Counted from the first letter of the stretch, positions 19,384 through 47,293 are shown. The stretch is 64,000 nucleotides of DNA from a virus (IMGVR_UViG_3300035670_000048:1-64000), one strand, 5' to 3'. Notes: a model not told the origin generated them from the sequence alone. Made by a program: numbers and translations.

Positions 19384-19412
19384 TTATTATGATGTAAATG
19401 TAATCTGGAAAT
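19384..19412 (-). promoter_or_regulatory. Early promoter motif, class A (+ strand form TTATTACA[TG]GTAAATGTAATCTGGAAAT; gene-strand form ATTTCCAGATTACATTTAC..TGTAATAA).
   Basis: ttattatgatgtaaatgtaatctggaaat. 35 nt upstream of the 19349 start. Confidence 0.6.
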
Positions 19413-19422
19413 CTGTCGGACC

Positions 19423-19626
19423 CTACTCTTTTGAACTTACGAACCCGAACATTGCTATTAGGAATCCAAACACTAGGACCACTACGTAATCCATATCATT
19501 AGTGAATACCATTCCGTAGCATGCGATCATCACTAACATTGTACCTAGTATAGCTAGGATTGCTGCTCCGTTTTTCTTAGTTTGAGCTTGCTTACGTGCG
19601 ATTTCTTGGATTTGAGCTTGTGTCAT
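19423..19626 (-). CDS. Small membrane protein.
   Basis: 67 aa with two hydrophobic segments. Early-motif promoter upstream. Confidence 0.5.
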   Translation of the reverse strand: MTQAQIQEIARKQAQTKKNGAAILAILGTMLVMIACYGMVFTNDMDYVVVLVFGFLIAMFGFVSSKE

Positions 19627-19653
19627 GTTTTTATTATTTTGTTAGTTAATTAT

Positions 19654-19682
19654 TTATTACAGGGTAAATATAATCTGGAAAT
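19654..19682 (-). promoter_or_regulatory. Early promoter motif, class A.
   Basis: ttattacagggtaaatataatctggaaat. Confidence 0.6.
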
Positions 19683-19687
19683 TGACA

Positions 19688-19933
19688 CTATAACATGTTT
19701 TCAACATTTACTTCATGTTGGTATATCACGTCATCATTATTTACTTTCCATAAGTTACCCTCATTATCTAATACGTGAACTGTAACTCGGTTTACTTTTT
19801 GGATTACGCCTGTACTTTTCTCATATCCCCATCCTATATTCTGTACTGGTGCTTCATACATGAATGTAATATGTTGTCCAACTGTGAATTCTGGTTTCTT
19901 AACTGCCGCTTTTTTGATGATTTGAGTTTTCAT
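19688..19933 (-). CDS. Hypothetical protein.
   Basis: 81 aa ORF. Motif variant at 19944-19974. Confidence 0.5.
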   Translation of the reverse strand: MKTQIIKKAAVKKPEFTVGQHITFMYEAPVQNIGWGYEKSTGVIQKVNRVTVHVLDNEGNLWKVNNDDVIYQHEVNVENML

Positions 19934-19981
19934 GTTCGTTTGTTTTTATGTACAGGGTAAAGTTAATCAGGACACACGCGC

Positions 19982-20197
19982 CTATCTAATCATAATAGGC
20001 GCTTTTTTAACTCTGCGTTTCGTGTGTTTCTTAACTGTCTTCATTTTGTAATACACTACATTGTTGATTGTAATGAATTCTTCATGACGCGCTGTACAGT
20101 AATCAAAGCGAATATAAGTGTCTCCGTTGAAGTGTTTAACCGGTACTACTGATGGGTTGATGTTCTTGATTCCTGGGTTGTGAATTGTTGCTGACAT
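19982..20197 (-). CDS. Hypothetical protein.
   Basis: 71 aa ORF. Early motif at 20221-20249. Confidence 0.5.
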   Translation of the reverse strand: MSATIHNPGIKNINPSVVPVKHFNGDTYIRFDYCTARHEEFITINNVVYYKMKTVKKHTKRRVKKAPIMIR

Positions 20198-20220
20198 GTT
20201 TGTTTGTTTTAGTTAATTAT

Positions 20221-20249
20221 TTATTACATGGTAATGATAATCTGGAAAT
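20221..20249 (-). promoter_or_regulatory. Early promoter motif, class A.
   Basis: ttattacatggtaatgataatctggaaat. Confidence 0.6.
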
Positions 20250-20437
20250 TATTCAACTTCAACCTCTTCAACATCCCAATAATACCATTTATACTGGAAT
20301 CCAAAACTATCTTTATATTTAACTTCCATTTCAGCTATATAGTTATTTGCTTTTTCTAATGTAGTGAATATTTTCTCTAGATCGGTACTATTACTCTCAC
20401 CACTACAATGTTCCTTATTTACTACGTATACTTTCAT
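20249..20437 (-). CDS. Hypothetical protein.
   Basis: 62 aa ORF. Early motif at 20451-20479. Confidence 0.5.
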   Translation of the reverse strand: MKVYVVNKEHCSGESNSTDLEKIFTTLEKANNYIAEMEVKYKDSFGFQYKWYYWDVEEVEVE

Positions 20438-20450
20438 GTTTATTTATTAT

Positions 20451-20479
20451 TTATTACATCGTAAATGTAACCTTGAATT
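20451..20479 (-). promoter_or_regulatory. Early promoter motif, class A.
   Basis: ttattacatcgtaaatgtaaccttgaatt. Confidence 0.55.
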
Positions 20480-20480
20480 T

Positions 20481-20639
20481 CTATCCTTCCAACGCGTCAA
20501 TTTCTGCCTCTAATTTGGCGATTTGTTTCTTGGTTGACTCAACCATTAATGTCCAGCCTTTGGCTTGGAACTTTTCTAGGCGCTCAATCGCATCCTCTAA
20601 TTGTTTTAATTTTAATTCGAATTTTAAATCGTTACTCAT
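20481..20639 (-). CDS. Small coiled-coil protein (52 aa, below the ORF-track cutoff).
   Basis: Translated by eye: MSNDLKFELKLKQLEDAIERLEKFQAKGWTLMVESTKKQIAKLEAEIDALEG*. Early motif directly upstream (20652-20680). Confidence 0.35.
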   Translation of the reverse strand: MSNDLKFELKLKQLEDAIERLEKFQAKGWTLMVESTKKQIAKLEAEIDALEG

Positions 20640-20651
20640 ATTGTTAATTAT

Positions 20652-20680
20652 TTATTACATGGTAATGGTAATTAAGAGAG
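20652..20680 (-). promoter_or_regulatory. Early promoter motif, class A.
   Basis: ttattacatggtaatggtaattaagagag. Confidence 0.55.
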
Positions 20681-20708: not shown

Positions 20709-20969
20709 TTATTTTTCTATAAACCACATTAATATATCTTCTCCTCTCAATTCAAAATTCATCTCTACATCCCACTCATCATTTACTATATTTCCATTTC
20801 TTAATCTATTTTTTAAATCAATCCAACCATCTACAAATTCATCATCATAATTTTCTCTATCACTATACTCAATATCTAACCATAATTCTTCAATTCTCTT
20901 ACCAACTTCATACTCATTATCATTTCCACATCCAAACCATTCAATTAATACATTTTCCATTTTTTCCAT
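20709..20969 (-). CDS. Hypothetical acidic protein.
   Basis: 86 aa ORF. A/T-rich promoter-like region 20970-21040. Confidence 0.5.
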   Translation of the reverse strand: MEKMENVLIEWFGCGNDNEYEVGKRIEELWLDIEYSDRENYDDEFVDGWIDLKNRLRNGNIVNDEWDVEMNFELRGEDILMWFIEK

Positions 20970-21049
20970 TTTTATATTATTTATATTATTTAATTATTTA
21001 TATATTAAATATAATAAAGAAATATATATAATTAAAATAGAACAAAGAT

Positions 21050-21205: not shown

Positions 21206-21367
21206 TTATTTTACCTTAACGAATCGACCGTTACGGATATCACGTTTGTGACGACGACCGAACTTGTCTACTGCTGTTTCGTAATACATGTTTGCGTATA
21301 CTTTATACACGTAATAACCTGCTACTGTCAATAGTGCTGCTGCACCTAAAATTTGAAATAATTCCAT
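21206..21367 (-). CDS. Small membrane protein. Start re-assigned to an internal Met.
   Basis: MELFQILGAAALLTVAGYYVYKV... The track start at 21427 would place the early motif (21384-21410) inside the gene. Confidence 0.45.
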   Translation of the reverse strand: MELFQILGAAALLTVAGYYVYKVYANMYYETAVDKFGRRHKRDIRNGRFVKVK

Positions 21368-21427
21368 ATGTTTGTTTTGTTTTTTTACTCTGTAAATGTA
21401 ATTAAGACATTTTTGTTTTCCCAGCAC

Positions 21428-21895
21428 AAAAAATTGTATAAAAAAAACATGATTAGACGTTTATTTAATCATCACCACCACCATTTAGACGGTCGTTGAA
21501 CCATTTAATCGCCATTTAGACGGTTGTCTAATCGTTTCACAACAAAAAAATGACACAAAATTGGACTGTTCTACTAAGAAAGCGTCTCCTTACATGTGAA
21601 CCCACCACCTTTGTGTGGGCTATTCTACTAATTTTAAAGTATATACAAAGTATTTATAAAAATGGTAGGAGGGGTGGGGAGAAAAATTGGAACACAACCC
21701 TTTACCACACCACCGTCATCTCCATTCATTCCACATACCATTACACATTTATATAATTACACGAACGTCTAATTACACATCCGTCTAACCACATTCCATA
21801 CTAACAAAAAAATATTCCACATCTACATAACACAAATATATGCGAAAAAAACGTGGGATCTACGTGGATTCTACACGAAAAAAACATGATCACTA
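21428..21895. promoter_or_regulatory. 470-bp non-coding region with iteron-like TTAGACGG / CCGTCTAA repeats (3 direct then 3 inverted) and CCACC-rich tracts. Candidate origin or regulatory hub.
   Basis: TTAGAC at 21453, 21486, 21517. GTCTAA at 21526, 21767, 21783. ccatttagacgg x2. Hairpin cccaccacctttgtgtggg at 21601-19. Tandem gtgggatctac/gtggattctac at 21852-74. Confidence 0.4.
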
Positions 21896-23088: not shown

Positions 23089-23319
23089 TTATTTTAAGAA
23101 GAAGTCAAATGTTTGCTTAATGATGCTCATGTTTACTTCTTGGTAGATTAGCCATTTACACCATACAATGGGAGTAAATATGAAATCCATGATTGCCCAT
23201 CCAATACTATTGTGAATTGTGTATCCAATCATTGCCGTCGGCAATTGAATTAGAATGTATGGGAATGTAAATACCTTAACTGTTATTTTTTTATTTGTCA
23301 TTGTCTTGTTGTTTACCAT
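23089..23319 (-). CDS. Small membrane protein.
   Basis: 76 aa. Hydrophobic, Trp-rich. Confidence 0.5.
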   Translation of the reverse strand: MVNNKTMTNKKITVKVFTFPYILIQLPTAMIGYTIHNSIGWAIMDFIFTPIVWCKWLIYQEVNMSIIKQTFDFFLK

Positions 23320-23654
23320 CCACTATTCTCTACCCAACCTACTTCCTCTAATACATCATAAATCTTATCTAATGCGGTATGCATTTTATTTGTAGATTCT
23401 TTAAATTGATGATCACGTGCTTTCATACCTGCTTCATAAGCATAATGCATTAGGTAGTTAACGTATTTTTCTGTAAATCCGAATGAATCGGTTCCTGCTT
23501 CTCCTACGTGTCTGTGATATCCTTCATTGCTGAATTTTTCTTGTACGTATGCTTTCAACCATAGTATGTTTTGATCTACTTCGTTAGGTCGAGGCGATAA
23601 TTTAACTGCGCCTTCTTCTACTCGTTTCTTGTAAAAATCCCAAAATTCGCTCAT
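23313..23654 (-). CDS. Hypothetical protein.
   Basis: 113 aa ORF. Early motif at 23674-23701. Confidence 0.5.
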   Translation of the reverse strand: MSEFWDFYKKRVEEGAVKLSPRPNEVDQNILWLKAYVQEKFSNEGYHRHVGEAGTDSFGFTEKYVNYLMHYAYEAGMKARDHQFKESTNKMHTALDKIYDVLEEVGWVENSGW

Positions 23655-23673
23655 GATGTTTGTTTATTTATCT

Positions 23674-23701
23674 TATTACATTGTAAATGTAATTAGGAAA
23701 C
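23674..23701 (-). promoter_or_regulatory. Early promoter motif, class A.
   Basis: ttattacattgtaaatgtaattaggaaac. Confidence 0.6.
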
Positions 23702-24052: not shown

Positions 24053-24200
24053 TATCGTATGCTCTGAATACTGTTTTTAAATTATTGCGATCGGTTTGTT
24101 GCATTGCAACGTCTGTTAAGTGTTTGGATTTTTGTTTTACCATTTCACTTATCAATTCAAATGCGCGGTTTGTTTTTTCGGCTTGTGTTTTATTTGTCAT
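24042..24200 (-). CDS. Small ORF (52 aa) filling the gap between 24052 and 24190.
   Basis: Translated by eye: MTNKTQAEKTNRAFELISEMVKQKSKHLTDVAMQQTDRNNLKTVFRAYDNGK*. Couples with both neighbours. Confidence 0.3.
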   Translation of the reverse strand: MTNKTQAEKTNRAFELISEMVKQKSKHLTDVAMQQTDRNNLKTVFRAYDNGK

Positions 24201-24420
24201 TTTCGATACAATATTTTATTAATTTTTTACCTACGTTAGAGCTTTTAGCAATTGAATCACCTGTAATTAGTGATTCGATTTTCCAAGTTACTTCACCGTT
24301 TTTTTCGATTTTGATTACTTTATACTCATCATTATCTTCTTCATCGTAATCGTCGGTTCCAAAGTATATGTGGTATACTGTACTCTTGGCACATAGTTCT
24401 AGATATTTCTTATTTTCCAT
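24190..24420 (-). CDS. Hypothetical protein. Probably leaderless, as the motif abuts the ATG.
   Basis: 76 aa ORF. Early motif 24421-24443 starts 1 nt after the start codon. Confidence 0.5.
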   Translation of the reverse strand: MENKKYLELCAKSTVYHIYFGTDDYDEEDNDEYKVIKIEKNGEVTWKIESLITGDSIAKSSNVGKKLIKYCIENDK

Positions 24421-24443
24421 ATTGTAAATGTAATCTGGAAATT
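24421..24443 (-). promoter_or_regulatory. Early promoter motif, class A, abutting the start codon (leaderless arrangement).
   Basis: attgtaaatgtaatctggaaatt begins 1 nt after the ATG of 24190..24420. Confidence 0.55.
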
Positions 24444-25034: not shown

Positions 25035-25337
25035 TTACAATTTGTTTTCTAATTCATTGATGAAATATAATGCGTCTGTTTTACCTCCGACATGGAATAC
25101 TTGTAATTCATTCATTGTGTACTCACGATCATATGTTTTCCAATCGTAGATAGTAAAGTAATCGTTTTTGAATTTAACTACCCATTCCACTTGTGTTTTA
25201 TCATCGAGTGATGCTTCGCTGAATGTAGGTGGACCTAACACTTCTACTAATCGTTTGTAAGTAGCGTGTGTATAGCCTTTTAATGATGTGCCGCATGTTT
25301 GATTTGATGCGAAGTCTTGATTTCTTAATGTTCTCAT
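25035..25337 (-). CDS. Hypothetical protein.
   Basis: 100 aa ORF. Early motif (class B) at 25350-25378. Confidence 0.5.
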   Translation of the reverse strand: MRTLRNQDFASNQTCGTSLKGYTHATYKRLVEVLGPPTFSEASLDDKTQVEWVVKFKNDYFTIYDWKTYDREYTMNELQVFHVGGKTDALYFINELENKL

Positions 25338-25349
25338 GTTTGCTCGTTT

Positions 25350-25378
25350 TTATTACAGATTAAAGATAATTAGGAAAT
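25350..25378 (-). promoter_or_regulatory. Early promoter motif, class B (+ strand form TACAGATTAAAGATAAT[TA]AGGAAAT).
   Basis: ttattacagattaaagataattaggaaat. Confidence 0.6.
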
Positions 25379-25379: not shown

Positions 25380-25580
25380 CTATTTATCCAATATTATTGA
25401 ATTAAGTATATCAATTGATTCTGTTAAATCATATCCATACTCATCTAAGATTCGGATAAAATCATGTAAATTATTACATTGATTTAATTCCTTTCGTATT
25501 TGTTTCATTGGGAATGGTGGGGATGCTTCTTCTTCATCCATAATATGAAATAATTTGAGTCTTAAATCTTGGATTTCCAT
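25380..25580 (-). CDS. Hypothetical protein.
   Basis: 66 aa ORF. Motif at 25592-25620. Confidence 0.5.
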   Translation of the reverse strand: MEIQDLRLKLFHIMDEEEASPPFPMKQIRKELNQCNNLHDFIRILDEYGYDLTESIDILNSIILDK

Positions 25581-25591
25581 ATGTTTGTTTA

Positions 25592-25620
25592 TTTGTACAG
25601 ATTAAAGATAATAAGGAAAT
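25592..25620 (-). promoter_or_regulatory. Early promoter motif, class B.
   Basis: tttgtacagattaaagataataaggaaat. Confidence 0.6.
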
Positions 25621-25847: not shown

Positions 25848-26036
25848 CTATTTCTTTTTAGTTAGTGAAGCGATTTTAGCATTTAAGTCCTTAGCTATCA
25901 TTGCTGGGAATTTAATATCGTATAGAACGCGTTTGCCGTTTGATTCGGCGTCTGTGATTTCTTTCTCGAAATTTTCTTGCCATAACTCTAATGCTTGCTG
26001 GATTACGAATTGATCGTGTGCGTTTAACTTCTTCAT
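25848..26036 (-). CDS. Hypothetical protein.
   Basis: 62 aa ORF. Motif at 26062-26090. Confidence 0.5.
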   Translation of the reverse strand: MKKLNAHDQFVIQQALELWQENFEKEITDAESNGKRVLYDIKFPAMIAKDLNAKIASLTKKK

Positions 26037-26061
26037 GTTTGTTTATTTATTGGTTTAACTT

Positions 26062-26090
26062 TTATTACATCGTAAATATAATCTAGAAAT
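26062..26090 (-). promoter_or_regulatory. Early promoter motif, class A.
   Basis: ttattacatcgtaaatataatctagaaat. The preceding leader atgtttgtttatttattggtttaactt is near-identical to 28764-28791. Confidence 0.6.
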
Positions 26091-26356: not shown

Positions 26357-26728
26357 CTATACAGTCTCTCCAATTTCTAATTCTACTACATCGTTTAATT
26401 TTAATCGTGTAATTTCTGATTTTAAATAATTAGTAGCAATTTCACGATACTCTTCATTGGCCATCTGAATTAGTTTATCTAATTCTTCGTCTGTGATGTC
26501 GATTGGTAATGATACTTTATAGTTATCATCACGATTTGAATATTTCATGATTTCGACTTGACTCTTATAATCCTCTCCAAAGTCAACACCTGATACATTA
26601 GTACCTTCAGCGAAGTATAAACTAATATTTTCAGATAATTGATTGTGTCCTTCAGGTAATCGCATTACAATTCCTAAACCACGTATTTGCTCGAATAATG
26701 TTTTGAATGTGTTTAATTGATTTCTCAT
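26357..26728 (-). CDS. Hypothetical protein.
   Basis: 123 aa ORF. Motif at 26757-26785. Confidence 0.5.
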   Translation of the reverse strand: MRNQLNTFKTLFEQIRGLGIVMRLPEGHNQLSENISLYFAEGTNVSGVDFGEDYKSQVEIMKYSNRDDNYKVSLPIDITDEELDKLIQMANEEYREIATNYLKSEITRLKLNDVVELEIGETV

Positions 26729-26756
26729 GTTTTTATTTGTTTATTTGTTCTAACTT

Positions 26757-26785
26757 TTCTTACAGATTAAAGATAATAAGGAAAT
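26757..26785 (-). promoter_or_regulatory. Early promoter motif, class B.
   Basis: ttcttacagattaaagataataaggaaat. Confidence 0.6.
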
Positions 26786-27150: not shown

Positions 27151-27345
27151 TTATAATTGATTTAAACGGATATGCTCCTTGTTGATGAAGTAATTTAATT
27201 TACCTGAATATTCCTCTAATAGTACTAGTAATTGTACTTTAGATTCAACTGTAGGTGATGTAGCTAATGATCTAGCTGTTGATTCGATTAGACTGCTGTA
27301 GTAATCGATTTTGGGCATGTAGCCGTATAGATATTTATTTCTCAT
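27151..27345 (-). CDS. Hypothetical protein.
   Basis: 64 aa ORF. Motif at 27361-27385. Confidence 0.5.
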   Translation of the reverse strand: MRNKYLYGYMPKIDYYSSLIESTARSLATSPTVESKVQLLVLLEEYSGKLNYFINKEHIRLNQL

Positions 27346-27399
27346 GTTTGTTTGTTTTAATACATTATAAATGTAATTAAGAAATTTATTTAATCCAAG

Positions 27400-27530: not shown

Positions 27531-27809
27531 TTACTTTTCAATCATTGTGATTGGTACTTTATAGCTGAAGTATCCTGTTTCGAGTTGTAATGTAGCAGTT
27601 GTACGTTTGATTTCTCTAACGATCAATGATTTACCTTGTAGTTTGGGGTGATTCACTTTTACTTTATCTCCAATGTTAATTTCGAACTCGGCGATTGCCT
27701 GTTTGCGTTTTACTTTAATAGTTTTAACAACGCGTTCATTTAATTCACGTAGTTGCTCTAATGTCAGTTGGTTTAATTGTGCTTGTGTCATGTTATCTAT
27801 AATTTTCAA
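27531..27809 (-). CDS. Hypothetical protein.
   Basis: 92 aa ORF. Confidence 0.5.
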   Translation of the reverse strand: MKIIDNMTQAQLNQLTLEQLRELNERVVKTIKVKRKQAIAEFEINIGDKVKVNHPKLQGKSLIVREIKRTTATLQLETGYFSYKVPITMIEK

Positions 27810-27960
27810 ATATGAATAATAATTCTTCGCGTGTTAATTCGCTTAATGCGTTTTTAAATGCAACGTGAGTTGGGATTAATGCTCGTTCGTAGTTGTCTAC
27901 TTCCCAATTGATTTTGTTCTGTAGATCCAATACTGTTTTTATTTTATCTTCTCGTATCAT
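27793..27960 (-). CDS. Small ORF (55 aa).
   Basis: Translated by eye: MIREDKIKTVLDLQNKINWEVDNYERALIPTHVAFKNALSELTREELLFIFENYR*. Class B motif immediately upstream (27974-28003). 17-nt overlap with the downstream gene. Confidence 0.3.
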   Translation of the reverse strand: MIREDKIKTVLDLQNKINWEVDNYERALIPTHVAFKNALSELTREELLFIFENYR

Positions 27961-27973
27961 GTTAATTTATTTA

Positions 27974-28003
27974 TTCGTACAGATTAAAGATAATTAAGAG
28001 AAC
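27974..28003 (-). promoter_or_regulatory. Early promoter motif, class B.
   Basis: ttcgtacagattaaagataattaagagaa. Confidence 0.55.
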
Positions 28004-28012: not shown

Positions 28013-28762
28013 CTATTGGGCGTTGAAGTGATCCATTAACTCGTCATTCGTCATTTTATTTGTCATTGCATCATATTTCTTATGAGCATATTCACCATCA
28101 GGTGTAGTAGTAGTTCTAAACACTATGTAGCTACCTGATTTGAATTTAACTGTAACTGTTTCGAATTCATCGTAATTACCTCTGCCACTATTATATCCTT
28201 TACCTGCTTCTACTTCAGCGTTTGGATATAATTTCTTGTATTTGTTAACTGTATACTTAACAATTGATTTAACTGTATTGGCGCGTGCAAATTCGTAATG
28301 TGCTTTTTCAGCTGCTTTAGCGATATTAACTAATATCGTTTCAGCTTTCATTTTACGTGAGTTCTGATTCAACCAGAAGCATTCGACTTTATCACCATAT
28401 AGTGAAATTGTAGCTTTGGTCTTAACGATTTCATTCTTTGTGTTATCGTATCGATCGAATATAATGTAAAAGTTACCATCGAATTGATCTAATTCAGCTT
28501 CAACCATTTTAGCTTCATCTCTCCAATGATTAACATTAACGCTACGCATTACTTTCTTACAATCAATGCTATAACTGTATTGAGCAGGTGAGAATCCAGC
28601 ATCAATTACCAGTTTCATTTTACGTAATACTTCGTCTTTTTGACGATTCATCTGCTTTGTAGCCGACGCTTTAGCTTCTGTAAGGCGTTGTTCCTGCTCT
28701 ACAGTTAACATGTTTGTGAATAATGGTAATTGGTTTGGAGCGATTTCTATTGTGTTTTCCAT
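28013..28762 (-). CDS. Hypothetical protein.
   Basis: 249 aa ORF. Motif at 28792-28819. Confidence 0.5.
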   Translation of the reverse strand: MENTIEIAPNQLPLFTNMLTVEQEQRLTEAKASATKQMNRQKDEVLRKMKLVIDAGFSPAQYSYSIDCKKVMRSVNVNHWRDEAKMVEAELDQFDGNFYIIFDRYDNTKNEIVKTKATISLYGDKVECFWLNQNSRKMKAETILVNIAKAAEKAHYEFARANTVKSIVKYTVNKYKKLYPNAEVEAGKGYNSGRGNYDEFETVTVKFKSGSYIVFRTTTTPDGEYAHKKYDAMTNKMTNDELMDHFNAQ

Positions 28763-28791
28763 AATGTTTGTTTATTTATTGGTTTAACTTC

Positions 28792-28819
28792 TTATTACAT
28801 TTAAAGATAATTAGGAAAT
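28792..28819 (-). promoter_or_regulatory. Early promoter motif, class A/B hybrid.
   Basis: ttattacatttaaagataattaggaaat. Confidence 0.55.
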
Positions 28820-28947: not shown

Positions 28948-29220
28948 TTACGCTATTTTATCTATTTCAGGAATGATAACTGTTTGAATATGATTATTGA
29001 ACAGCGTTTCGTGTTCAATCATCTCAGCAGGTGCCCAATTGCATGTACATACATCATGATATGATCTATGATATGACATTGCCTCGTATGGATAATTTTC
29101 ATTTACCAATGTGAATGTTCCATCACCCTCGATGTCTTCTACTTCATATTCAGGGTAATTTGCTGTTAACCACGTTAGGAATGTTTTGTTAATTAGTTTG
29201 CGTTTTTCTGACTTGTTCAT
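28948..29220 (-). CDS. Hypothetical Cys/His-containing protein.
   Basis: 90 aa. Motif at 29237-29264. Confidence 0.5.
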   Translation of the reverse strand: MNKSEKRKLINKTFLTWLTANYPEYEVEDIEGDGTFTLVNENYPYEAMSYHRSYHDVCTCNWAPAEMIEHETLFNNHIQTVIIPEIDKIA

Positions 29221-29236
29221 ATGTTTGTTTATTTAT

Positions 29237-29264
29237 TTGTACATAGTAAATATAATAAGGAAAG
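29237..29264 (-). promoter_or_regulatory. Early promoter motif, class A.
   Basis: tttgtacatagtaaatataataaggaaag. Confidence 0.55.
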
Positions 29265-30688: not shown

Positions 30689-31408
30689 TTATTTTTTATA
30701 TGTATTAAATTTAATTTCACCGTTATCAATGATCATATACTCGCCTGATGTTCCTAATGTATCAATATAGTAGTAACGACCATTTGTTGATTTACCTTCA
30801 CGATCGATTTTATTCTGTTGAGTATGACCTACAACTTGAATGAACTGATCACGTAATGTATCACGATTAGCTTTCTGAAGTGATTTAGGACGAATCCAAA
30901 TTGGAGACGATTCAACACTATCACCATATGGACTCAATCCAGTAAATCTAAACGGACGTGATGATGAATCCCACATTTCGTTTATATTATCTGCTACATT
31001 ATCACCTTCTAAATGCAACATTTTCATCCAGTAAGTATACCAATCATTACTTACACCAGCGTGAGTGAATAGATAACCATCCATTTCGTATGCCATCTGT
31101 AGGTGTTCTGTATTATTGAATAATAAATCATTAATAGCTGGAGCAGCACCGGCTTGATATCCACTATAACGTTCTGAGCCATCCATATAATGAAAGTCAT
31201 GATTACCAACTAATATGATTACCTCTGCTTTGTCTGATAATTTGAAGTTAATTATCTGTTCAAAGTTTGACATCTGCTCGGCCGCAGTATAATCATCGTA
31301 TGAATCAAAGTAATCTCCAATGAATATAACTCGATCTGGTTGTTCGTCTATTACGATTTGCTTCCAGCAATCACGACCATGGATATCACCTATTACAACT
31401 GTTTTCAT
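30689..31408 (-). CDS. PPP-family Ser/Thr or diadenosine-tetraphosphatase-type metallophosphoesterase.
   Basis: Signature motifs GDIHGR ... GDYFDSY ... GNHDF. Confidence 0.65.
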   Translation of the reverse strand: MKTVVIGDIHGRDCWKQIVIDEQPDRVIFIGDYFDSYDDYTAAEQMSNFEQIINFKLSDKAEVIILVGNHDFHYMDGSERYSGYQAGAAPAINDLLFNNTEHLQMAYEMDGYLFTHAGVSNDWYTYWMKMLHLEGDNVADNINEMWDSSSRPFRFTGLSPYGDSVESSPIWIRPKSLQKANRDTLRDQFIQVVGHTQQNKIDREGKSTNGRYYYIDTLGTSGEYMIIDNGEIKFNTYKK

Positions 31409-31431
31409 ATTATAAATGTAATTAAGAGAAC
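31406..31431 (-). promoter_or_regulatory. Early promoter motif, class A (short form) abutting the ATG of the PPP phosphatase gene.
   Basis: catattataaatgtaattaagagaac. Confidence 0.5.
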
Positions 31432-32000: not shown

Positions 32001-32023
32001 GCTATGAATGTAATTAAGAAATC

Positions 32024-32623: not shown

Positions 32624-32660
32624 ATTAGATATTTTATTTATATATAAATATAATCAAGAA

Positions 32661-34412: not shown

Positions 34413-34427
34413 TTGTTTGTTTATCTT

Positions 34428-34454
34428 ATTATACTGTAAATATAATTAAGAAAT
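34428..34454 (-). promoter_or_regulatory. Early promoter motif, class A.
   Basis: ttatactgtaaatataattaagaaat. Confidence 0.55.
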
Positions 34455-35215: not shown

Positions 35216-35601
35216 AATTTAATTTGGAATCTATGTAACATATTACCTATTGATGCTGCAGGAACATTATGTATTGATTCATTACCATGACGATTCTCTA
35301 CAATCAACGAATGAACACGATAACCGTATTTAGCTGCTAATTCATAATAATCTTTCATTTCCCATTCCTGAGTAAATGTGTTTGCTACTACAATTTTAGC
35401 ATCGTTATCTGTCATCCAATCCTCAACTACATCACGACACCACTTATGTGCTGCTGGTAATCCGCGTTGATTAAATTCATATTCGCCTGTTTCTTCATTG
35501 ATAAAGTACATATCTGCTTCGATATGTCTATTAGCTAATAATTCTGCTAATGTTGTTTTACCAGCACCTGGTAATCCTCTTAATAATATTAAATCTTTCA
35601 T
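35212..35601 (-). CDS. P-loop kinase (AAA_33 / polynucleotide-kinase-like). Start re-assigned to MKDLILL...
   Basis: Walker A LRGLPGAGKTT at the N-terminus. The track start at 35661 would run through the promoter motif 35599-35623. Confidence 0.5.
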   Translation of the reverse strand: MKDLILLRGLPGAGKTTLAELLANRHIEADMYFINEETGEYEFNQRGLPAAHKWCRDVVEDWMTDNDAKIVVANTFTQEWEMKDYYELAAKYGYRVHSLIVENRHGNESIHNVPAASIGNMLHRFQIKL

Positions 35602-35623
35602 AATATGAAGATAATTAAGAAAT
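35599..35623 (-). promoter_or_regulatory. Early promoter motif, class B (short), abutting the kinase ATG.
   Basis: cataatatgaagataattaagaaat. Confidence 0.5.
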
Positions 35624-35884
35624 TTAATAATGTAAATCCAAATAAAAACATTCTTTATCATCTAGGTATGTAACCGGACTCCAAACTGCGGAATATTGGT
35701 TATCCCATTCTGGATATATTGGGTCTGGTTTCTTTAAAGTTTTCCATCCACGTTCTTCATAATATATATCTTCTACTCTCTGTGATACTACCAATGCATC
35801 ATCTGGATAATCTTTCAAATATTCTTTTAATTCACCTACTGTTAGATAATGTAGATGTTTTTCTTTAAATTCCTTCGGTGTCAT
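35624..35884 (-). CDS. Hypothetical protein.
   Basis: 86 aa ORF. Confidence 0.45.
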   Translation of the reverse strand: MTPKEFKEKHLHYLTVGELKEYLKDYPDDALVVSQRVEDIYYEERGWKTLKKPDPIYPEWDNQYSAVWSPVTYLDDKECFYLDLHY

Positions 35885-36083
35885 TATTTATTTGTTTAAT
35901 TATGGTTCGATTTATAGGAAATGAAGCAACGATAGTTTTCATGTAAGTGCTTTTTTGTTCAATTTTAAATGTATAACATCCGTTATTGTAATCATATCCA
36001 TCCGCATCTATTTCATATTCAACAATTCCACCACTACCACCTTGGATAGTTCCCGTAATTACATCTAAATAATATCTTTTCAT
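35865..36083 (-). CDS. Hypothetical protein.
   Basis: 72 aa ORF. Confidence 0.45.
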   Translation of the reverse strand: MKRYYLDVITGTIQGGSGGIVEYEIDADGYDYNNGCYTFKIEQKSTYMKTIVASFPINRTIIKQINNDTEGI

Positions 36084-38227: not shown

Positions 38228-38407
38228 CTACCATATCTCTAACGCTGTTTTAGGAGTATTAGATTTAATATGTGATTCGCTTAAATTATATTTAAGTAAG
38301 TACTCACGTTTCTGACGAGCATAATACTCGTTCAATTCCTTATCAATTGATGATATTACAGTTGTAGGATACTGTTTGATATTGAATATATCTTTTTTGG
38401 CTGTCAT
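38228..38407 (-). CDS. Small ORF (59 aa).
   Basis: Translated by eye: MTAKKDIFNIKQYPTTVISSIDKELNEYYARQKREYLLKYNLSESHIKSNTPKTALEIW*. Class B motif at 38423-38444. Confidence 0.3.
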   Translation of the reverse strand: MTAKKDIFNIKQYPTTVISSIDKELNEYYARQKREYLLKYNLSESHIKSNTPKTALEIW

Positions 38408-38422
38408 AATAATTATTTTATG

Positions 38423-38444
38423 TTTTAAAGATAATGAGGAAAAG
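38423..38444 (-). promoter_or_regulatory. Early promoter motif, class B, placed immediately after a terminator hairpin.
   Basis: ttttaaagataatgaggaaaag. Confidence 0.5.
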
Positions 38445-38464: not shown

Positions 38465-39268
38465 TTAAACTACCTCGGCGTACTCGCTTACATACTGATC
38501 TGCTAATTCCCACAATCCGGAATTGAATTCGATGTCTTGGGTAAAGTTCTTTAACGCTCTTGCTTTACGTGTTTTACCTTTTTCGTTTTGGTAGTTAAAA
38601 CCACCACCAACTAACTTCTCTTGGACACGGTTCAGAATTGCCCACATCGACATACCAGCATCTTCTTTACGTTCAACTACTAATAATTGATCTGTATTAA
38701 TCTCTTTTAAATTATCACCAAAACGCAACTGAGCTGCTTTAGCTGCAAACGCATTTGCTAATTCATCTGAGATTTCGATTTCATTGAATTTATTAATACG
38801 ACCAACTACATCAGGTAAACGTTCTACCATTGTATGAATTAATGAACGTAATGTTTCGAAATCATAACCTTGATGGCGGATTTTTAATGTGCCTAAATCC
38901 TTATCTTTAATCACTAAACCGTTTGAACATACTAAACGGAAAATACCTACTTCAAATCTAAATGTAGACGAACCATCATGTGAATTGGTTAATAATACTT
39001 CAATGTATGAATCTACATTTCCGTTTGCATCAGCCATATACACACCCTCGTTTCTGAATTTAACTAAGTGTTTCTTAATTGCTGAATTGCCACCCTTACG
39101 GGCCTTAACACCAACTGCTTGAACGGGTTCCCATCCTAATTTTCTCATGTCTTCCACTACTTGAATAGTAGGGATTTGAGTGTAATGATCTGATAATCCG
39201 GCTTTATGCTCGGTAGATATTACTGCAGGTGCTAAATTTGCGATTTGATCGTTTGATAAAATGTTCAT
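38465..39268 (-). CDS. Hypothetical protein.
   Basis: 267 aa ORF. Terminator hairpin directly downstream (38444-38457). Confidence 0.5.
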   Translation of the reverse strand: MNILSNDQIANLAPAVISTEHKAGLSDHYTQIPTIQVVEDMRKLGWEPVQAVGVKARKGGNSAIKKHLVKFRNEGVYMADANGNVDSYIEVLLTNSHDGSSTFRFEVGIFRLVCSNGLVIKDKDLGTLKIRHQGYDFETLRSLIHTMVERLPDVVGRINKFNEIEISDELANAFAAKAAQLRFGDNLKEINTDQLLVVERKEDAGMSMWAILNRVQEKLVGGGFNYQNEKGKTRKARALKNFTQDIEFNSGLWELADQYVSEYAEVV

Positions 39269-39334: not shown

Positions 39335-39553
39335 CTAGTACTTGTAAGATGATTTAGTTTCAATTTCTTCTTCTGTTACTTCTGGTTTTGAGTAAGTATA
39401 AGGTACTACTGTATAACCCATTGTTTCAAGCATTGCTCTTAAATTCGATACTTTAGGATATGCCATTTTCTCTAATTCGGATCCAATTCCTTTTAATAAT
39501 AGCATTTCTTTGTAGTCACGAGCAGTTTTACGGTTGGCGGATGTGTTTTCCAT
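39335..39553 (-). CDS. Hypothetical protein.
   Basis: 72 aa ORF. Motif at 39587-39613. Confidence 0.5.
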   Translation of the reverse strand: MENTSANRKTARDYKEMLLLKGIGSELEKMAYPKVSNLRAMLETMGYTVVPYTYSKPEVTEEEIETKSSYKY

Positions 39554-39586
39554 TTGTTTGTTTTGGTTTTAAGTTAAAAATTTATT

Positions 39587-39613
39587 TTATAATGTAAATA
39601 TAATAAGGAAAAT
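39587..39613 (-). promoter_or_regulatory. Early promoter motif, class A.
   Basis: ttataatgtaaatataataaggaaaat. Confidence 0.55.
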
Positions 39614-40234
39614 TTAAATACTTTGGTAAGCTTCTCTAATCTTTTTACGTACTGTATCACGATAATCGTCTGCGGCAGCGATGATTTCGTTACGGGATGA
39701 ATTCCACAACTCCAATTCTGCTTTACGACGGCGTACTAATCCTCTACTAACGCGTCCACTAGCCATTTTATATTGTAGTAAATAAGGCTCAATATCACGT
39801 CCACGCTTAATTGCTTTACCTAATCCATCAGTTGCGAAACGCATTCCGATATTGAATGCTATCATTGATGTTAGTATAACTTTCTTACGAGATTTGAGTT
39901 CAGGGAAACGACGTTTAACGTCTTTAATGAATTTAGTATAATCCTTATCAAATAATTCGTCTGCTTCTCTAACTGATATGCCGTGTCTGTATTTAGAACG
40001 TTCGGCTTTAGTCATAACGTGACCCCAACCAATAGTCCATTTACCACCTTGGCATTTATACGGTTTTAATTTTAATGATTCTTCTGATTTGATGAATAAA
40101 GCAGCTGTATTATAGAGTTTGTCGTCTGACGTTTCTGCTACTTCAATAATTTCTGGTTCGACTGTGGGTCTGTGTTTTTCATTGTAACCCATCCACAATG
40201 CGGCTAACATAGCCGTTACGACTATCTTTCTCAT
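39614..40234 (-). CDS. Phage lysozyme (GH24, T4-lysozyme-like) with an N-terminal hydrophobic signal/anchor.
   Basis: SEESLKLKPYKCQGGKWTIGWGH aligns with T4L E11...D20...T26 ([21 protein letters not shown]). The catalytic Glu and Thr are present, and the Asp20 position is Cys. N-terminus MRKIVVTAMLAALWMGY. Confidence 0.6.
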   Translation of the reverse strand: MRKIVVTAMLAALWMGYNEKHRPTVEPEIIEVAETSDDKLYNTAALFIKSEESLKLKPYKCQGGKWTIGWGHVMTKAERSKYRHGISVREADELFDKDYTKFIKDVKRRFPELKSRKKVILTSMIAFNIGMRFATDGLGKAIKRGRDIEPYLLQYKMASGRVSRGLVRRRKAELELWNSSRNEIIAAADDYRDTVRKKIREAYQSI

Positions 40235-40307
40235 AAGTAATGTTGGTTAAATTGTTAAACTTATAATCTAAAGTTAATTAAGAAAGTTATACTTTCAAAA
40301 TTGTAAA

Positions 40308-40690: not shown

Positions 40691-40832
40691 TAGTCAGGAC
40701 AGGATTCGAACCTGTAAATTGCTAATCGTTGTGAGCCTATATAGCATTCATCTCACCGCTTCTACGATTGCGTATACCAATGCTTTTTTATTACTTGCAA
40801 TTAATATATAGCATATATTCCGCCACCTGACC
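40691..40832 (-). tRNA. tRNA-like gene, 141 nt. Same family as 21106 and 27400, with a ~37-nt insertion in the D-loop and a ~27-nt hairpin insertion in the anticodon-arm region.
   Basis: RC: GGTCAGG-TG-GCGG-AAT[ATATGC...AAGCAT]TGGTATA-CGC-AATCGT...[GGTGAG...CTCAC]...ACGATT...ACAGG-TTCGAAT-CCTGT-CCTGACT-A. Acceptor 7/7 (one G-U). Confidence 0.4.
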
Positions 40833-41042
40833 AAATAATTTCGGAACTTATGGATTTTCACCACCAAAATCTCTTTTCTCAACTGGCCTCGTTGAGCGAG
40901 TGTTATCGCGTAATTCGTCATTCCTAACTTAGGGTAATTAATCCTAAATATATCTTTATGGTTCGTCCTCGAATTCGGGAAACGGATTAAAACCATTTAA
41001 AATTGCTTCAACATAAATTTCGTCCATCGTCTTATCTTTAAG

Positions 41043-41066
41043 TACGATGTAAATGTAATTAGGAAA
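41043..41066 (-). promoter_or_regulatory. Early promoter motif, class A.
   Basis: acgatgtaaatgtaattaggaaat. Confidence 0.55.
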
Positions 41067-41069
41067 TTT

Positions 41070-44313: not shown

Positions 44314-44553
44314 TTATATAATTTTATTTGTAATTTGTAAAATTGTTTTTTGATCTTCTTCAGATAGTCTCCATCTGTTGTTGGACAGTTTACCAATTTG
44401 GTCATTCCATACATCATCTGTACTTGGGAACTCCGCTTTTTTAGCTACGTAACCATCTTCATATAGTTCGTCTACTAACTGTTGTAATTCTCTAACGCTT
44501 AATGATGAAATAACATCATCAATATCTACATCTACACTAACGTAACCACGCAT
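44314..44553 (-). CDS. Hypothetical protein.
   Basis: 79 aa ORF. Motif at 44569-44591. Confidence 0.5.
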   Translation of the reverse strand: MRGYVSVDVDIDDVISSLSVRELQQLVDELYEDGYVAKKAEFPSTDDVWNDQIGKLSNNRWRLSEEDQKTILQITNKII

Positions 44554-44568
44554 ATTTTATTTATTTTA

Positions 44569-44591
44569 ACAATTAAAGATAATGAGGAAAT
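44569..44591 (-). promoter_or_regulatory. Early promoter motif, class B.
   Basis: acaattaaagataatgaggaaat. Confidence 0.5.
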
Positions 44592-45236: not shown

Positions 45237-45237
45237 T

Positions 45238-45633
45238 TTATAACAATTTCTTTACAACTTGCCACAGTTGTTCTGGATCAGATATTTCACGTTCATTTCC
45301 ATCTGTATCAACGTATGGAATTGATCCGTCCATTTCTAATCGATCATAACAATAGTGAATAATCAACTCAGCAGCCTGAGTTCCAAATGATAAATAAATC
45401 AGATTATCAATGATTTGTAAATACATTTCATCGTAGTCTGATAAATCGATTTTAAAGTCTGAATGTACTAATGTTGAACGATTTAATACTAATTCAATTT
45501 GAGTAATGATATTGATGAATAATTCATGTTTGATATCATCATTATTTTTCTTACGACGTACTATCTTAGTGTTAGCACCAATAATGTTATTTATTTGGTT
45601 TTGAATACCTTCAATATCTTTATCTACATTCAT
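45238..45633 (-). CDS. Hypothetical protein.
   Basis: 131 aa ORF. Confidence 0.5.
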   Translation of the reverse strand: MNVDKDIEGIQNQINNIIGANTKIVRRKKNNDDIKHELFINIITQIELVLNRSTLVHSDFKIDLSDYDEMYLQIIDNLIYLSFGTQAAELIIHYCYDRLEMDGSIPYVDTDGNEREISDPEQLWQVVKKLL

Positions 45634-45715
45634 AACTTATTATCTTTTTTAATATTATGATTAATAAAACCAATCATTATTCCTACAAACATTATTATTG
45701 TCAATACTATTGGAC

Positions 45716-46024
45716 TCATAACTGATTTTTTAATTTTACAATTTCAGCACACGTTTCATAATCTTCAAACACCTCGTAATACGAGATAGACTTGTCTAGT
45801 GCTGACTCAAAGTCTTGTTTTTCAACTGTTAGGTATTGTCCTGTAGAATTGATTTCAACTATTTTAGCGTGTTTTAATTTACGCTTAATAGCATCTCGTA
45901 TCCCAGTTACTGTTTGATAATAAACAATATCTCTAACAACTTCATTCTCAGCTATAACTGAGTAATCTGGTTCACCGTCTCCGTTTATATTAAACTGTAG
46001 ATTCGGTATTATTCGCTTGGCCAT
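45716..46024 (-). CDS. Hypothetical protein.
   Basis: 102 aa ORF. Confidence 0.5.
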   Translation of the reverse strand: MAKRIIPNLQFNINGDGEPDYSVIAENEVVRDIVYYQTVTGIRDAIKRKLKHAKIVEINSTGQYLTVEKQDFESALDKSISYYEVFEDYETCAEIVKLKNQL

Positions 46025-46406
46025 CAGAATTAGGGTTTAAAATGTTTTTGATAAATAATTTAAAGCTCTCTAATCGGATTAAGAATCCAATTACATTCTG
46101 ATATGGTACGTCTAAATCGGTATCAACTGATAATCCGATATCTGCTAGTCCTTTGTTTAATTTAGTTTTTAATTTTTGGGTAATTTCTTCCTTCTTAGCC
46201 TCGTCTGTGCCTTGAGGAACGATGAATTGAATTTTAATACCCTTTTTAGTCGGGTTTTTATTCACATCCACTACCATTTTTAATCCACTATCTGGTGAAT
46301 CTGGAGGTGTCATATCAACTGCGGGTTGTGTTGGTTCTGCAGTTGTTTCTTCTCCATTTAATTCTCCGATGATAGCTTTTATCTCGTCTTCTAATAAATG
46401 ATGCAT
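45990..46406 (-). CDS. Hypothetical protein.
   Basis: 138 aa ORF. Motif at 46426-46450. Confidence 0.5.
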   Translation of the reverse strand: MHHLLEDEIKAIIGELNGEETTAEPTQPAVDMTPPDSPDSGLKMVVDVNKNPTKKGIKIQFIVPQGTDEAKKEEITQKLKTKLNKGLADIGLSVDTDLDVPYQNVIGFLIRLESFKLFIKNILNPNSDGQANNTESTV

Positions 46407-46425
46407 ATTTTAGTATTTATTTTTC

Positions 46426-46450
46426 TTAATATAAATATAATAAAGAAAGG
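46426..46450 (-). promoter_or_regulatory. Early promoter motif (short form).
   Basis: cttaatataaatataataaagaaagg. Confidence 0.45.
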
Positions 46451-46468
46451 CCCTAGAAACTAGGACCT
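46448..46468 (-). terminator. Terminator-like hairpin after 46490..46840.
   Basis: aggccctagaaactaggacct (one mismatch), immediately followed by the promoter motif. Confidence 0.4.
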
Positions 46469-46489
46469 TTAATTTTTAGCCGTGTGCTA

Positions 46490-46840
46490 CTATTTCTTCT
46501 TAGGATAGTAACGACGCTTTTTCTTCGCTGGCTTAGGTGTTTCAACAACTGGGGCTACTTCAGCTACAGGAGTAGCTTCAACTAAAGGTGTTTGTTCTTC
46601 AGCGATCTCTGCTTTTACCTTTTTAGATGGTGTAGCAGGAACAGAAGCTAACGCTTCATCAATCTTAGCAGCCATCTTTTCTACTTGTTCAATAGACTTA
46701 GATACACTAGCCGTTGCTTCTACAATTTCATCTGTTAGGTCCTTGTTTTCAAGAACAACCTCAACGGTCTCAGATGATTTGTACATGTAAAAAACTGCTC
46801 CAGCAATAATAACTAAAGCGATAATCGAAATTAACAACAT
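46490..46840 (-). CDS. Membrane protein with a basic C-terminal tail.
   Basis: 116 aa. N-terminal TM. C-terminal KPAKKKRRYYPKKK. Terminator-like hairpin downstream at 46448-46468. Confidence 0.5.
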   Translation of the reverse strand: MLLISIIALVIIAGAVFYMYKSSETVEVVLENKDLTDEIVEATASVSKSIEQVEKMAAKIDEALASVPATPSKKVKAEIAEEQTPLVEATPVAEVAPVVETPKPAKKKRRYYPKKK

Positions 46841-46864
46841 AATTGTTTGGGTTTGGTTTAAAAA

Positions 46865-47095
46865 TTAATCTTTGAAAAAGTCTAATACTACAAACTGCAT
46901 AAATTTAAACAGTGATACTGGTATAAATAAAAATAGTACAATAAATGGTATTCCGGGTATTAATAAATATCGTCTATATTTTCGTTTATATGAACGGTCT
47001 AATGATAAATCTAATAATGAATCTACCATAAGCGCTACTGCAACATTCATAACAATAAGAACAAATATATAAAAAGTGATTAGTACGTATTCCAT
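46865..47095 (-). CDS. Small 2-TM membrane protein.
   Basis: 76 aa, hydrophobic. Confidence 0.5.
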   Translation of the reverse strand: MEYVLITFYIFVLIVMNVAVALMVDSLLDLSLDRSYKRKYRRYLLIPGIPFIVLFLFIPVSLFKFMQFVVLDFFKD

Positions 47096-47271
47096 TATTC
47101 TTCTCTATGGTGTTTAGTTGTGTTATGATAGATAAATGCGGTTAATAATACCCACCCAAATTTAGATGAGTCGGTCCATTCAATTAGAGCAACATCATAA
47201 TTAATTAATGTAAATACTCCAAATGCTATTAAAGCAGCTACTACAGCGTATTGTATTAAAACTTTTATCAT
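47095..47271 (-). CDS. Small membrane ORF (58 aa).
   Basis: Translated by eye: MIKVLIQYAVVAALIAFGVFTLINYDVALIEWTDSSKFGWVLLTAFIYHNTTKHHREE*. Motif at 47269-47293 abuts the ATG. Confidence 0.3.
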   Translation of the reverse strand: MIKVLIQYAVVAALIAFGVFTLINYDVALIEWTDSSKFGWVLLTAFIYHNTTKHHREE

Positions 47272-47293
47272 AATGTAAATTTAATTAGGAAAG
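47269..47293 (-). promoter_or_regulatory. Early promoter motif, class A (short).
   Basis: cataatgtaaatttaattaggaaag. Confidence 0.5.

Follow-up and report, generated by a model that had tools for sequence, protein, structure and literature searches.

Co-oriented copies of a putative Bacteroidota sigma-A-type promoter motif among the small genes of a large uncultured myovirus

The primary sigma factor of Bacteroidota (sigma-A, or sigma-ABfr) is given as recognizing a −33 element, TTTG, and a −7 element, TAnnTTTG (Bayley 2000 and Chen 2007, both as cited in PMC6847099). In the transcription start site (TSS) map of Flavobacterium johnsoniae, T-12, A-11, T-8, T-7, T-6 and G-5 are nearly invariant, G is virtually absent from −10 and −9, 4–5 nt separate the box from the start site, and AT-rich motifs are centred at −18 and −28 (PMC6847099). 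The sigma-A box of F. psychrophilum also lies at −12 to −5; 5.5% of its mRNAs are leaderless and the median 5′ untranslated region is 24 nt long (PMC9723704). The second described system of relevance is the PeSL promoter–terminator cassette of T4-type phages, a precedent for gene shuffling (Comeau 2014, PMC4122927). Here, we analyze a motif repeated along a 64,000-nt stretch of viral DNA, IMGVR_UViG_3300035670_000048:1-64000 (hereafter, the window), in which all called genes lie on the minus strand. We consider it likely that the motif is a promoter read by the primary sigma factor of the host, of the Bacteroidota sigma-A type, and that it drives the small early genes of a large myovirus.

A 30-nt position weight matrix (PWM) was seeded on ten exact ATTTCC sites with common context and iterated to convergence; motif position 1 is the A of ATTTCC, counted along the gene strand. 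The matrix recovers 33 copies on the minus strand, from 19383–19412 to 48833–48862, and one on the plus strand at 18514–18543. The scores are bimodal: all 33 minus-strand matches exceed 15 bits and 26 of them exceed 25 bits, with almost none between 8 and 15 bits. In second-order Markov simulations, 0.29 matches above 12 bits are expected and the best simulated score is 16.4. Similarly, the 17-nt core TTTCYTNATTAHHTTTA gives 31 matches at up to one mismatch, against 0.45 expected. All 33 minus-strand copies share the orientation of the genes. Of their cores, 30 fall entirely between genes, in a region that is 88.3% coding and 11.7% intergenic. The median spacing of the copies is 657 nt, within a 29.5-kb block of 74 mostly small, unannotated open reading frames (ORFs). 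A preliminary description had proposed about 30 copies of a roughly 29-nt motif between 19384 and 47293. Its count is borne out, and its range takes in nearly all copies but leaves out the weak one at 48833–48862. The properly aligned element is longer, about 45 nt including an upstream −33 element. Regarding its consensus strings, that of class B is correct (four matches), that of class A is one base short (one match as written, ten with an extra N), and the gene-strand summary beginning ATTTCC-N3-TTA-N2 is mis-spaced and has no match at up to two mismatches.

The columns of the motif differ sharply in conservation. Positions 2–7 read TTTCYT, and the C at position 5, present in 33/33 copies, is the most informative column (2.63 bits). 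Position 8 is free (0.09 bits) and lies between two invariant blocks, the second of which is ATTA at positions 9–12 (32–33 of 33 per column). Position 13 is Y or A and position 14 is A or C, with G in none of the 33 window copies and in one of 121 at each position in relatives. Positions 15–18 are TTTA (T in 31, T in 33, T in 31 and A in 33 of 33), positions 19–21 are nearly free, positions 22–25 read T-R-T-A, and an A-rich run extends from position 26 on. Position 23 is a purine in 30/33 copies and is preceded by T in 23/33. Further upstream, T is found at motif position −12 in 27/33 copies and G at −10 in 23/33, followed by G/A and A; these T-n-G columns lay outside the search PWM. The PWM also served to select 121 copies from metagenomic phage contigs of relatives; in these, C5, T11, A12, T16 and A18 are invariant again. 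The T/A columns of the −7 box are kept in 117–121 of the 121, and the two upstream columns are T in 86 and G in 81. Since invariant and free columns alternate, the pattern reflects selection on particular bases and not wholesale copying.

When position 23 is taken as +1, TA-HH-TTTA falls at −12 to −5 (ATTA-HH-TTTA at −14 to −5), TTTCYT at −21 to −16 with its C at −18, and T-n-G(G) at −35 to −32 (T-35, G-33), with T at −1 and R at +1. The −33 G lies 20 nt from the TA of the −7 box, which fits the N19–21 between −33 and −7 of Bacteroides promoters. The proposal that TAnnTTTA is a Bacteroidota −7 box agrees well with the geometry of F. johnsoniae and F. psychrophilum: T-12, A-11 and T-7 are present in 33/33 copies and T-8 and T-6 in 31/33, G is lacking at −10/−9, and 4 nt separate the box from the inferred start. 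The likeness extends to a G-33 of T-n-G 20 nt upstream of the box, a T-rich feature near −18, and short A-rich leaders lacking Shine–Dalgarno sequences, with a minority of genes predicted to be leaderless. ATTTCC, however, is not the −33 element it had been taken for; it lies in the spacer at −22 to −17, and the real −33 element, T-n-G(G), is 12 nt further upstream. The form ending in A is also the one used between genes: 35 of the 77 gene-strand TAHHTTTA occurrences in the window are intergenic, against one of the 19 TAHHTTTG occurrences. The comparison with the consensus of the presumed host type holds for the box geometry and the −33 element and departs from it at −5, where A replaces G. 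Other departures are the extra TTTCYT box with its invariant C-18, the conserved T-R-T-A-A start region, and a −33 element of T-n-G-G instead of TTTG.

The same columns bear on a classical sigma-70 promoter of a proteobacterial host, with ATTTCC as −35 and T(G/A)TAAT as −10. Some copies do hold TATAAT or TGTAAT at positions 22–27 (for example, the copy ending at 34454), and the better matches of the clamp loader encoded in the window include a Pelagibacter phage. However, at the two key bases of the hexamer just 14/33 copies have A (position 2) and just 13/33 have T (position 6), the spacer from ATTTCC to the hexamer is 15 nt, and in five copies the start codon lies inside the would-be −10, which would put the start site within the ORF. 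A scan with the sigma-70 consensus shows no enrichment (85 sites, with 98.9 expected), and Shine–Dalgarno sequences are depleted. We therefore rejected this reading, which is hardly credible.

The position of the start codons gives an independent view of the start site. In five window copies, ATG occupies exactly positions 23–25, whereas in the other 28 the first ATG of a long ORF follows 14–52 nt after position 23. In relatives, the distance is 0 in six cases, −2 and +2 in one each, and otherwise at least 13; distances of 3–12 nt occur neither in the window nor in relatives. Because the distances are either 0 or leader-length, as a ribosome would impose on a 5′ end, we infer that transcription starts at the purine of position 23, 4 nt after the −7 box, an assignment fixed independently of the literature. 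The five predicted leaderless genes follow the copies at 24413–24442 (30.6 bits; gene 24190–24420), 31401–31430 (25.3 bits; metallophosphoesterase gene 30689–31408), 31993–32022 (26.8 bits; 64-aa gene 31806–32000), 35594–35623 (26.7 bits; P-loop kinase-like gene 35212–35601) and 47264–47293 (32.1 bits; 58-aa gene 47095–47271), all on the minus strand. Two of these starts are anchored by the proteins: the metallophosphoesterase begins MKTVVIGDIHG from 31408, and PHROG profiles align with the kinase from residue 1, with the P-loop at its N-terminus, from 35601. The orthologs of gene 31806–32000 in three relatives (L082, L086 and L090) keep ATG at position 23 despite differing promoter sequence. 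The promoter of L085 that aligns at the DNA level with 24413–24442 also has ATG at position 23, and the L085 homolog of gene 24190–24420 maps elsewhere in the locus. The motif had been described as often abutting the start codon; this is the case in only 5/33 copies, although the four ATGs named then (24420, 31408, 35601 and 47271) are all at distance 0, joined by 32000. The ATG positions are consistent with leaderless mRNAs, and together with the motif geometry they support the −7 box and leaderless readings in silico.

The remaining leaders share features. As proposed earlier, the A-rich leaders at 26036–26062 and 28764–28791 are related, with 26-nt identity. Fifteen genes have ACAAAC no more than 25 nt from the ATG, where 2 would be expected, and an (A)AACAAAC element stands just upstream of about a dozen early-gene start codons. 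Of 116 upstream regions, 3 contain GGAG, GAGG or AGGA, whereas random windows give 10.1 ± 3.0, so Shine–Dalgarno sequences are depleted; the −3 base of the start codon is A in 73/116 genes and −12 to −14 is A-rich.

From these features, the following scheme may be proposed. The host sigma-A holoenzyme would read the −33 T-n-G(G) and the −7 (AT)TA-HH-TTTA of each copy, with the lineage-specific pyrimidine box TTTCYT at −21 to −16 and its invariant C-18 as a further part of the promoter. Transcription would begin at the purine of position 23 within the start region T(−1)-R(+1)-T-A-A. Most transcripts would then carry a 14–52-nt A-rich leader, free of Shine–Dalgarno sequences and often containing AAACAAAC, and approximately 15% would begin directly with AUG. 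In about a quarter of the copies, the T-rich left end of the motif would double as the U-tract of the terminator hairpin of the preceding gene, and genes with their promoter cores would be gained and lost between relatives at such terminator–promoter cassettes. The assignment of these promoters as early follows from the genome context and the likeness to the host consensus, and is correspondingly tentative.

Several observations weigh against this scheme. First, the −5 base is A in 33/33 window and 121/121 relative copies (154/154), whereas G-5 is nearly invariant in F. johnsoniae. Second, C-18, again in 154/154 copies, and the TTTCYT box belong to no described Bacteroidota sigma-A consensus, and promoters in other lineages of the phage group lack them. 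The lineages reached through the RNA ligase have TAHHTTTA, a start region of the form (c/t)A(t/g)TATAA and, approximately 19–20 nt upstream, a G-rich block, without TTTCYT, and L010 and L022 carry CCCTAAnTTCTTAnCCGAG in its place. Because C-18 and TTTCYT are lineage-specific and outside the described consensus, recognition by the unmodified host holoenzyme alone is not assured. Third, phylogenetic footprinting of 17 aligned promoter pairs at 75–94% identity shows the motif to be no more conserved than the flanking coding DNA and is uninformative in this identity range. Fourth, read-through transcripts could also serve for translation of the genes whose ATG is at position 23. Finally, the sigma factor and the timing are both assigned by analogy only.

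These points raise the alternative that a phage-supplied factor is needed, and that C-18 and A-5, within TTTCYT and the −7 box, form a lineage-specific discrimination code, not an optimized host contact, for a phage activator, sigma appropriator, sigma factor or phage-modified RNA polymerase. With such a code, the phage could distinguish its promoters from those of the host, in analogy with MotA/AsiA of T4 or with ADP-ribosylation by Alt, which favours T4 early promoters. C-18 and A-5 are invariant while neighbours such as position 8 vary freely, neither base is in the published host consensus, and other lineages use other add-ons. T4 middle promoters also have a phage-specific box upstream of a host-like downstream element; however, the MotA box replaces the −35 element at approximately −30, whereas the present motif retains −33, −7 and the distance between them, with the extra box at −21 to −16. 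No phage-encoded sigma, anti-sigma, activator, MotA or AsiA was recognized among 70 ORFs scanned (60 with PHROGs, 10 with Pfam), which is weak evidence, as most small ORFs were unscanned or have no family. F. johnsoniae host promoters have an AT-rich motif centred at −18, so the box may be an optimized host contact. TAHHTTTA also serves a Flavobacterium phage from another genus, vB_FspM_immuto (Immutovirus), the closest cultured relative found. There, genes follow a hairpin, a T-run, TA(T/C)(A/C)TTTA, 4–5 nt and (T)ATAA (50 kb inspected by eye, without statistics). The immuto box also ends in A and not G, and one ATG follows 4 nt after the box, but its TTTC(T) run abuts the TA of the box, whereas here the TTTC box is 4 nt upstream of the TA. 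On balance, we regard the factor-dependent code as unlikely, though it carries some weight. If it were true, sigma appropriation would have a Bacteroidota counterpart in this clade, acting on promoters of host-like appearance, and each phage lineage would have evolved its own add-on box, such as TTTCYT here and the L010/L022 sequence.

Other evidence bears on the phage itself and on its host. A profile scan of the window ORFs places T4-type baseplate wedge genes at 10141–12362, and the clamp-loader large and small subunits at 59814–61646 share a block with an exonuclease and a GroEL fragment. Between the two blocks is a 30-kb stretch of mostly small ORFs without family match, which also encodes the RNA ligase, phosphoesterases, a P-loop kinase and an endolysin-like gene. 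No close DNA match to the window is present among 50,697 phage records. The clamp loader is approximately 40% identical to those of many T4-like and jumbo phages, and the best cultured match of a baseplate wedge protein is immuto, at 46%. The phage is thus a large myovirus with T4-type baseplate and clamp-loader modules, only distantly T4-like. A motif scan of 185,579 genomes for a host or prophage gave 45 single, apparently chance matches in AT-rich genomes and one real relative, the 502-nt contig L112 (JAURIG010000240.1), which belongs to a Bacteroidota metagenome-assembled genome and is 84% identical to L085. L112 consists of a promoter, a small ORF and a promoter; the ORF is basic and repeat-rich and is followed by a T-rich stretch, and the contig is the only link to a host bin. 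It may represent an assembly break at repeated promoters, and it lends weak support to a Bacteroidota host. We take the host to belong to the Bacteroidota, and probably to the flavobacteria.

A hairpin of −8 kcal/mol or better lies directly upstream of 8/33 copies, compared with 11.5% of random 44-mers. In six of the eight (copies ending at 20680, 28002, 29264, 32662, 38443 and 46449), the 3′ arm runs into TTTC(Y)T, which would serve there as a terminator U-tract. These copies are 20651–20680 (−13.9 kcal/mol; 28.7 bits; TSS 20658, gene 20481–20639), 27973–28002 with a 12-bp terminator hairpin (−19.6 kcal/mol; 24.0 bits; TSS 27980, gene 27793–27960), 29235–29264 (−15.9 kcal/mol; 30.9 bits; TSS 29242, gene 28948–29220), 32633–32662 (−15.5 kcal/mol; 24.7 bits; TSS 32640, gene 32024–32623), 38414–38443 with the hairpin GGGGCTTCGGCCCC (−14.1 kcal/mol; 27.7 bits; TSS 38421, gene 38228–38407) and 46420–46449 (−17.1 kcal/mol; 28.3 bits; TSS 46427, gene 45990–46406). 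The copy at 19946–19975 (26.4 bits) also has a strong hairpin just upstream (−14.2 kcal/mol), with a predicted TSS at 19953 and a 20-nt leader before gene 19688–19933. One could therefore ask whether the motif acts in RNA, as a terminator U-tract, an RNase processing site or a translational operator, and not as a promoter; the eight copies follow a strong hairpin whose tail is TTTC(Y)T, and read-through transcripts would contain the motif. However, 25/33 copies have no such hairpin, the ATG distance varies over 14–52 nt, unlike that of an operator, and the invariant columns match a promoter consensus at the DNA level, together with an element situated 20 nt further upstream. An RNA-level role in place of promoter activity is very improbable.

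The comparison with relatives indicates how the promoters move. The relatives L081–L094 came from a motif pattern scan; the RNA-ligase-derived relatives L001–L080 turned out to be mosaics of other lineages with no motif match. At the phosphoesterase junction, approximately 20 nt of promoter core at about 31409–31430 in the window are precisely absent from L082, L086 and L090 between the same stop codon and ATG, so that the upstream stop codon is directly followed by ATG. Promoters are thus gained or lost as compact indels. Synteny maps of the window against L082, L086, L090, L085 and L094 show many promoter-bounded ORFs unique to one genome. For example, the block at 32.7–36.1 kb (RNA ligase 32956–34071, a phrog_14949 protein and the P-loop kinase) is absent from the closest relatives, L082, L086 and L090, and its ligase is 88% identical to that of the otherwise unrelated lineage L001. 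The block, at approximately 32700–36080, looks like a horizontally exchanged cassette bounded by promoters. Other copies are retained: 25349–25378 (34.2 bits; TSS 25356, gene 25035–25337) and 25591–25620 (30.2 bits; TSS 25598, gene 25380–25580) are conserved in L090 and L094, 39295–39324 (30.4 bits; TSS 39302, gene 38465–39268) and 39583–39612 (30.5 bits; TSS 39590, gene 39335–39553) are conserved in L082, and 40257–40286 (21.5 bits; TSS 40264, endolysin-like gene 39614–40234) has an identical copy in L082.

This behaviour resembles that of the T4 early promoters and PeSL cassettes (PMC4122927). Both systems have dozens of near-identical strong promoters co-oriented with the genes and packed between small ORFans of a hyperplastic region beside conserved T4-type modules (baseplate wedge, clamp loader). 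In both, conservation goes beyond the host consensus and genes are inserted, deleted or replaced between relatives; a subset here may likewise have a terminator stem-loop directly upstream. T4-type early promoters and PeSL cassettes are also said to be the subject of work by Arbiol in 2010. The plan here, unlike that of T4, is −33/−7 and not sigma-70 −35/−10, and there is no Shine–Dalgarno sequence in the cassette, both of which are expected with a Bacteroidota host. Furthermore, only about a quarter of the copies have a stem-loop, some cassettes abut the ATG, and the clamp loader has only the distant identity given above. The precedent invites the reading that the repeats are mainly PeSL-like recombination or mobility cassettes, conserved by homogenization, with promoter activity secondary or absent. 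The 20-nt core indel at one gene junction, the differing promoter-bounded ORFs, the missing RNA-ligase block and the identical promoter-plus-leader copies within the window all fit it. The indels at cassettes, as against promoter-free gene junctions, are observed cases only, without statistics. Homogenization would, however, conserve all columns alike, whereas here free columns stand between the invariant ones, which match the positions of the host −7 and −33 elements, and the strict co-orientation with genes and the bimodal ATG distance point to an expression function. We find recombination as the main role improbable; it and a promoter role are not mutually exclusive.

The motif had also been divided into two sub-classes, A and B, thought to mark temporally distinct regulons. 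A covariation does exist: copies with TC at positions 13–14 tend to have A at position 19 (TCTTTAA), and those with CA or TA tend to have C or T there (permutation p of 0.0006 and 0.004 for positions 13/14 with 19). It is real but weak and gives no clean split, and the AG at positions 7–8 of class A is found in only a handful of clustered copies. We reject discrete classes and treat the copies as a continuum in which a single pair of positions covaries. The temporal proposal does not hold, since the variants are interspersed along the genome and orthologous promoters switch variant between related phages. The variant differs between relatives before the homologs of genes 28013–28762, 28948–29220 and 31806–32000; the first of these is preceded in the window by the copy at 28790–28819 (22.0 bits; TSS 28797), and in L082, L090 and L086 by a different variant.

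The 33 copies here and the 121 of relatives provide a natural set of approximately 150 aligned, putatively strong Bacteroidota-type promoters, with a start fixed by the putatively leaderless genes. The set would be useful for expression tools in Flavobacteria, and the promoter and leader architecture for predicting the host phylum of uncultured phages. It would extend the T4 picture of gene-shuffling promoter–terminator cassettes to a phylum with a different sigma factor and no Shine–Dalgarno use, and it raises two precise questions, namely what recognizes C-18 and why A stands at −5 in place of G. Literature searches found no description of promoters of this motif type or of those of T4-like Flavobacterium phages; as far as they show, this instance is new, but the kind of element is well known. 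No new kind of system is revealed, and anything novel might lie only in the unexplained invariants C-18 and A-5.

The other minus-strand copies are described from low to high coordinates, with predicted start sites. The copy at 19383–19412 (32.4 bits; TSS 19390, 41-nt leader, gene 18984–19349) is the last before the structural-gene block. It is followed by 19653–19682 (34.2 bits; TSS 19660, 34-nt leader, gene 19423–19626), 20220–20249 (30.3 bits; TSS 20227, 30-nt leader, gene 19982–20197) and 20450–20479 (19.4 bits; TSS 20457, gene 20249–20437), whose TTTC box is degenerate (AATTCA). Next are 20994–21023 (28.2 bits; TSS 21001, gene 20709–20969), 21381–21410 (29.5 bits; TSS 21388, gene 21206–21367) and 23672–23701 (31.9 bits; TSS 23679, gene 23313–23654). 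The copy at 26061–26090 (31.4 bits; TSS 26068, gene 25848–26036) has a 32-nt leader in common with the copy ending at 28819. Further along are 26756–26785 (32.5 bits; TSS 26763, gene 26357–26728), 27356–27385 (30.4 bits; TSS 27363, gene 27151–27345), 32911–32940 (21.9 bits; TSS 32918, gene 32701–32871), 34425–34454 (30.7 bits; TSS 34432, gene 34230–34412), 41038–41067 (31.9 bits; TSS 41045, gene 40748–40996) and 44562–44591 (25.6 bits; TSS 44569, gene 44314–44553). The weakest copy, 48833–48862 (18.2 bits), lies inside the 3′ end of ORF 48746–49540, with its TSS at 48840, 52 nt before gene 48063–48788. A degenerate copy, AGCTCTTAATTACATTCAAG (61664–61693, minus strand, 8.9 bits), lies just upstream of the clamp-loader gene 60759–61646 and may be a weak or decayed promoter.

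Beyond the promoter block, sugar-modification genes occupy 47299–58046: several GT2 and GT1 glycosyltransferases, a DegT-type aminotransferase, an RmlD/epimerase-like gene and an FkbM methyltransferase, which may have a role in modifying DNA or the cell surface. This 11-kb stretch is without the motif, except for the edge copies 47264–47293 and 48833–48862 on its low-coordinate side. A tRNA-Met gene lies at 62230–62304 on the minus strand, and the C-terminal part of a phage GroEL-like chaperonin at 63015–63848 on the same strand; immuto also encodes GroES/GroEL.

The only plus-strand copy (18514–18543; 21.0 bits during iteration, 13.7 with the final PWM) is conserved in L085, L094 and L093. 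With a predicted TSS at approximately 18536, it points against all genes into a 430-nt gene-free, GC-rich stretch around 18514–18740 (plus strand). Conservation of this stretch is high in L085, L094, L093 and L083, and a T-run at approximately 18716–18736 closes it. Three copies of the palindrome (C/T)GTATATACG cluster at 17431–17440, 18415–18424 and 18568–18577. The predicted transcript has no Rfam match and no net covariation support among the five sequences available; the stretch may encode a non-coding RNA or hold a promoter-plus-R-loop replication origin. Another region without genes, approximately 470 nt long (21430–21895), contains 17–20-nt repeats with TTAGACG, three direct at 31–32-nt spacing (21453, 21485, 21516) and about three inverted (21757–21791), as well as GTGGAAT repeats and the only intergenic TAHHTTTG box of the window (21833–21840, minus strand). 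It has no Rfam match, and the array is a candidate iteron-like origin or protein-binding region.

Lastly, a different motif, (A)TATATATTTAT(A), was seen by eye, without statistics, 15–30 nt before several structural genes and a few others, including the minus-strand genes 3644–4309, 12365–12673, 14998–15372, 17561–17836 and 58695–58895. These sites have neither the TTTCYT box nor the −33 element. The late promoter of T4 is TATAAATA, and by analogy (A)TATATATTTAT(A) may be the late promoter of this phage.

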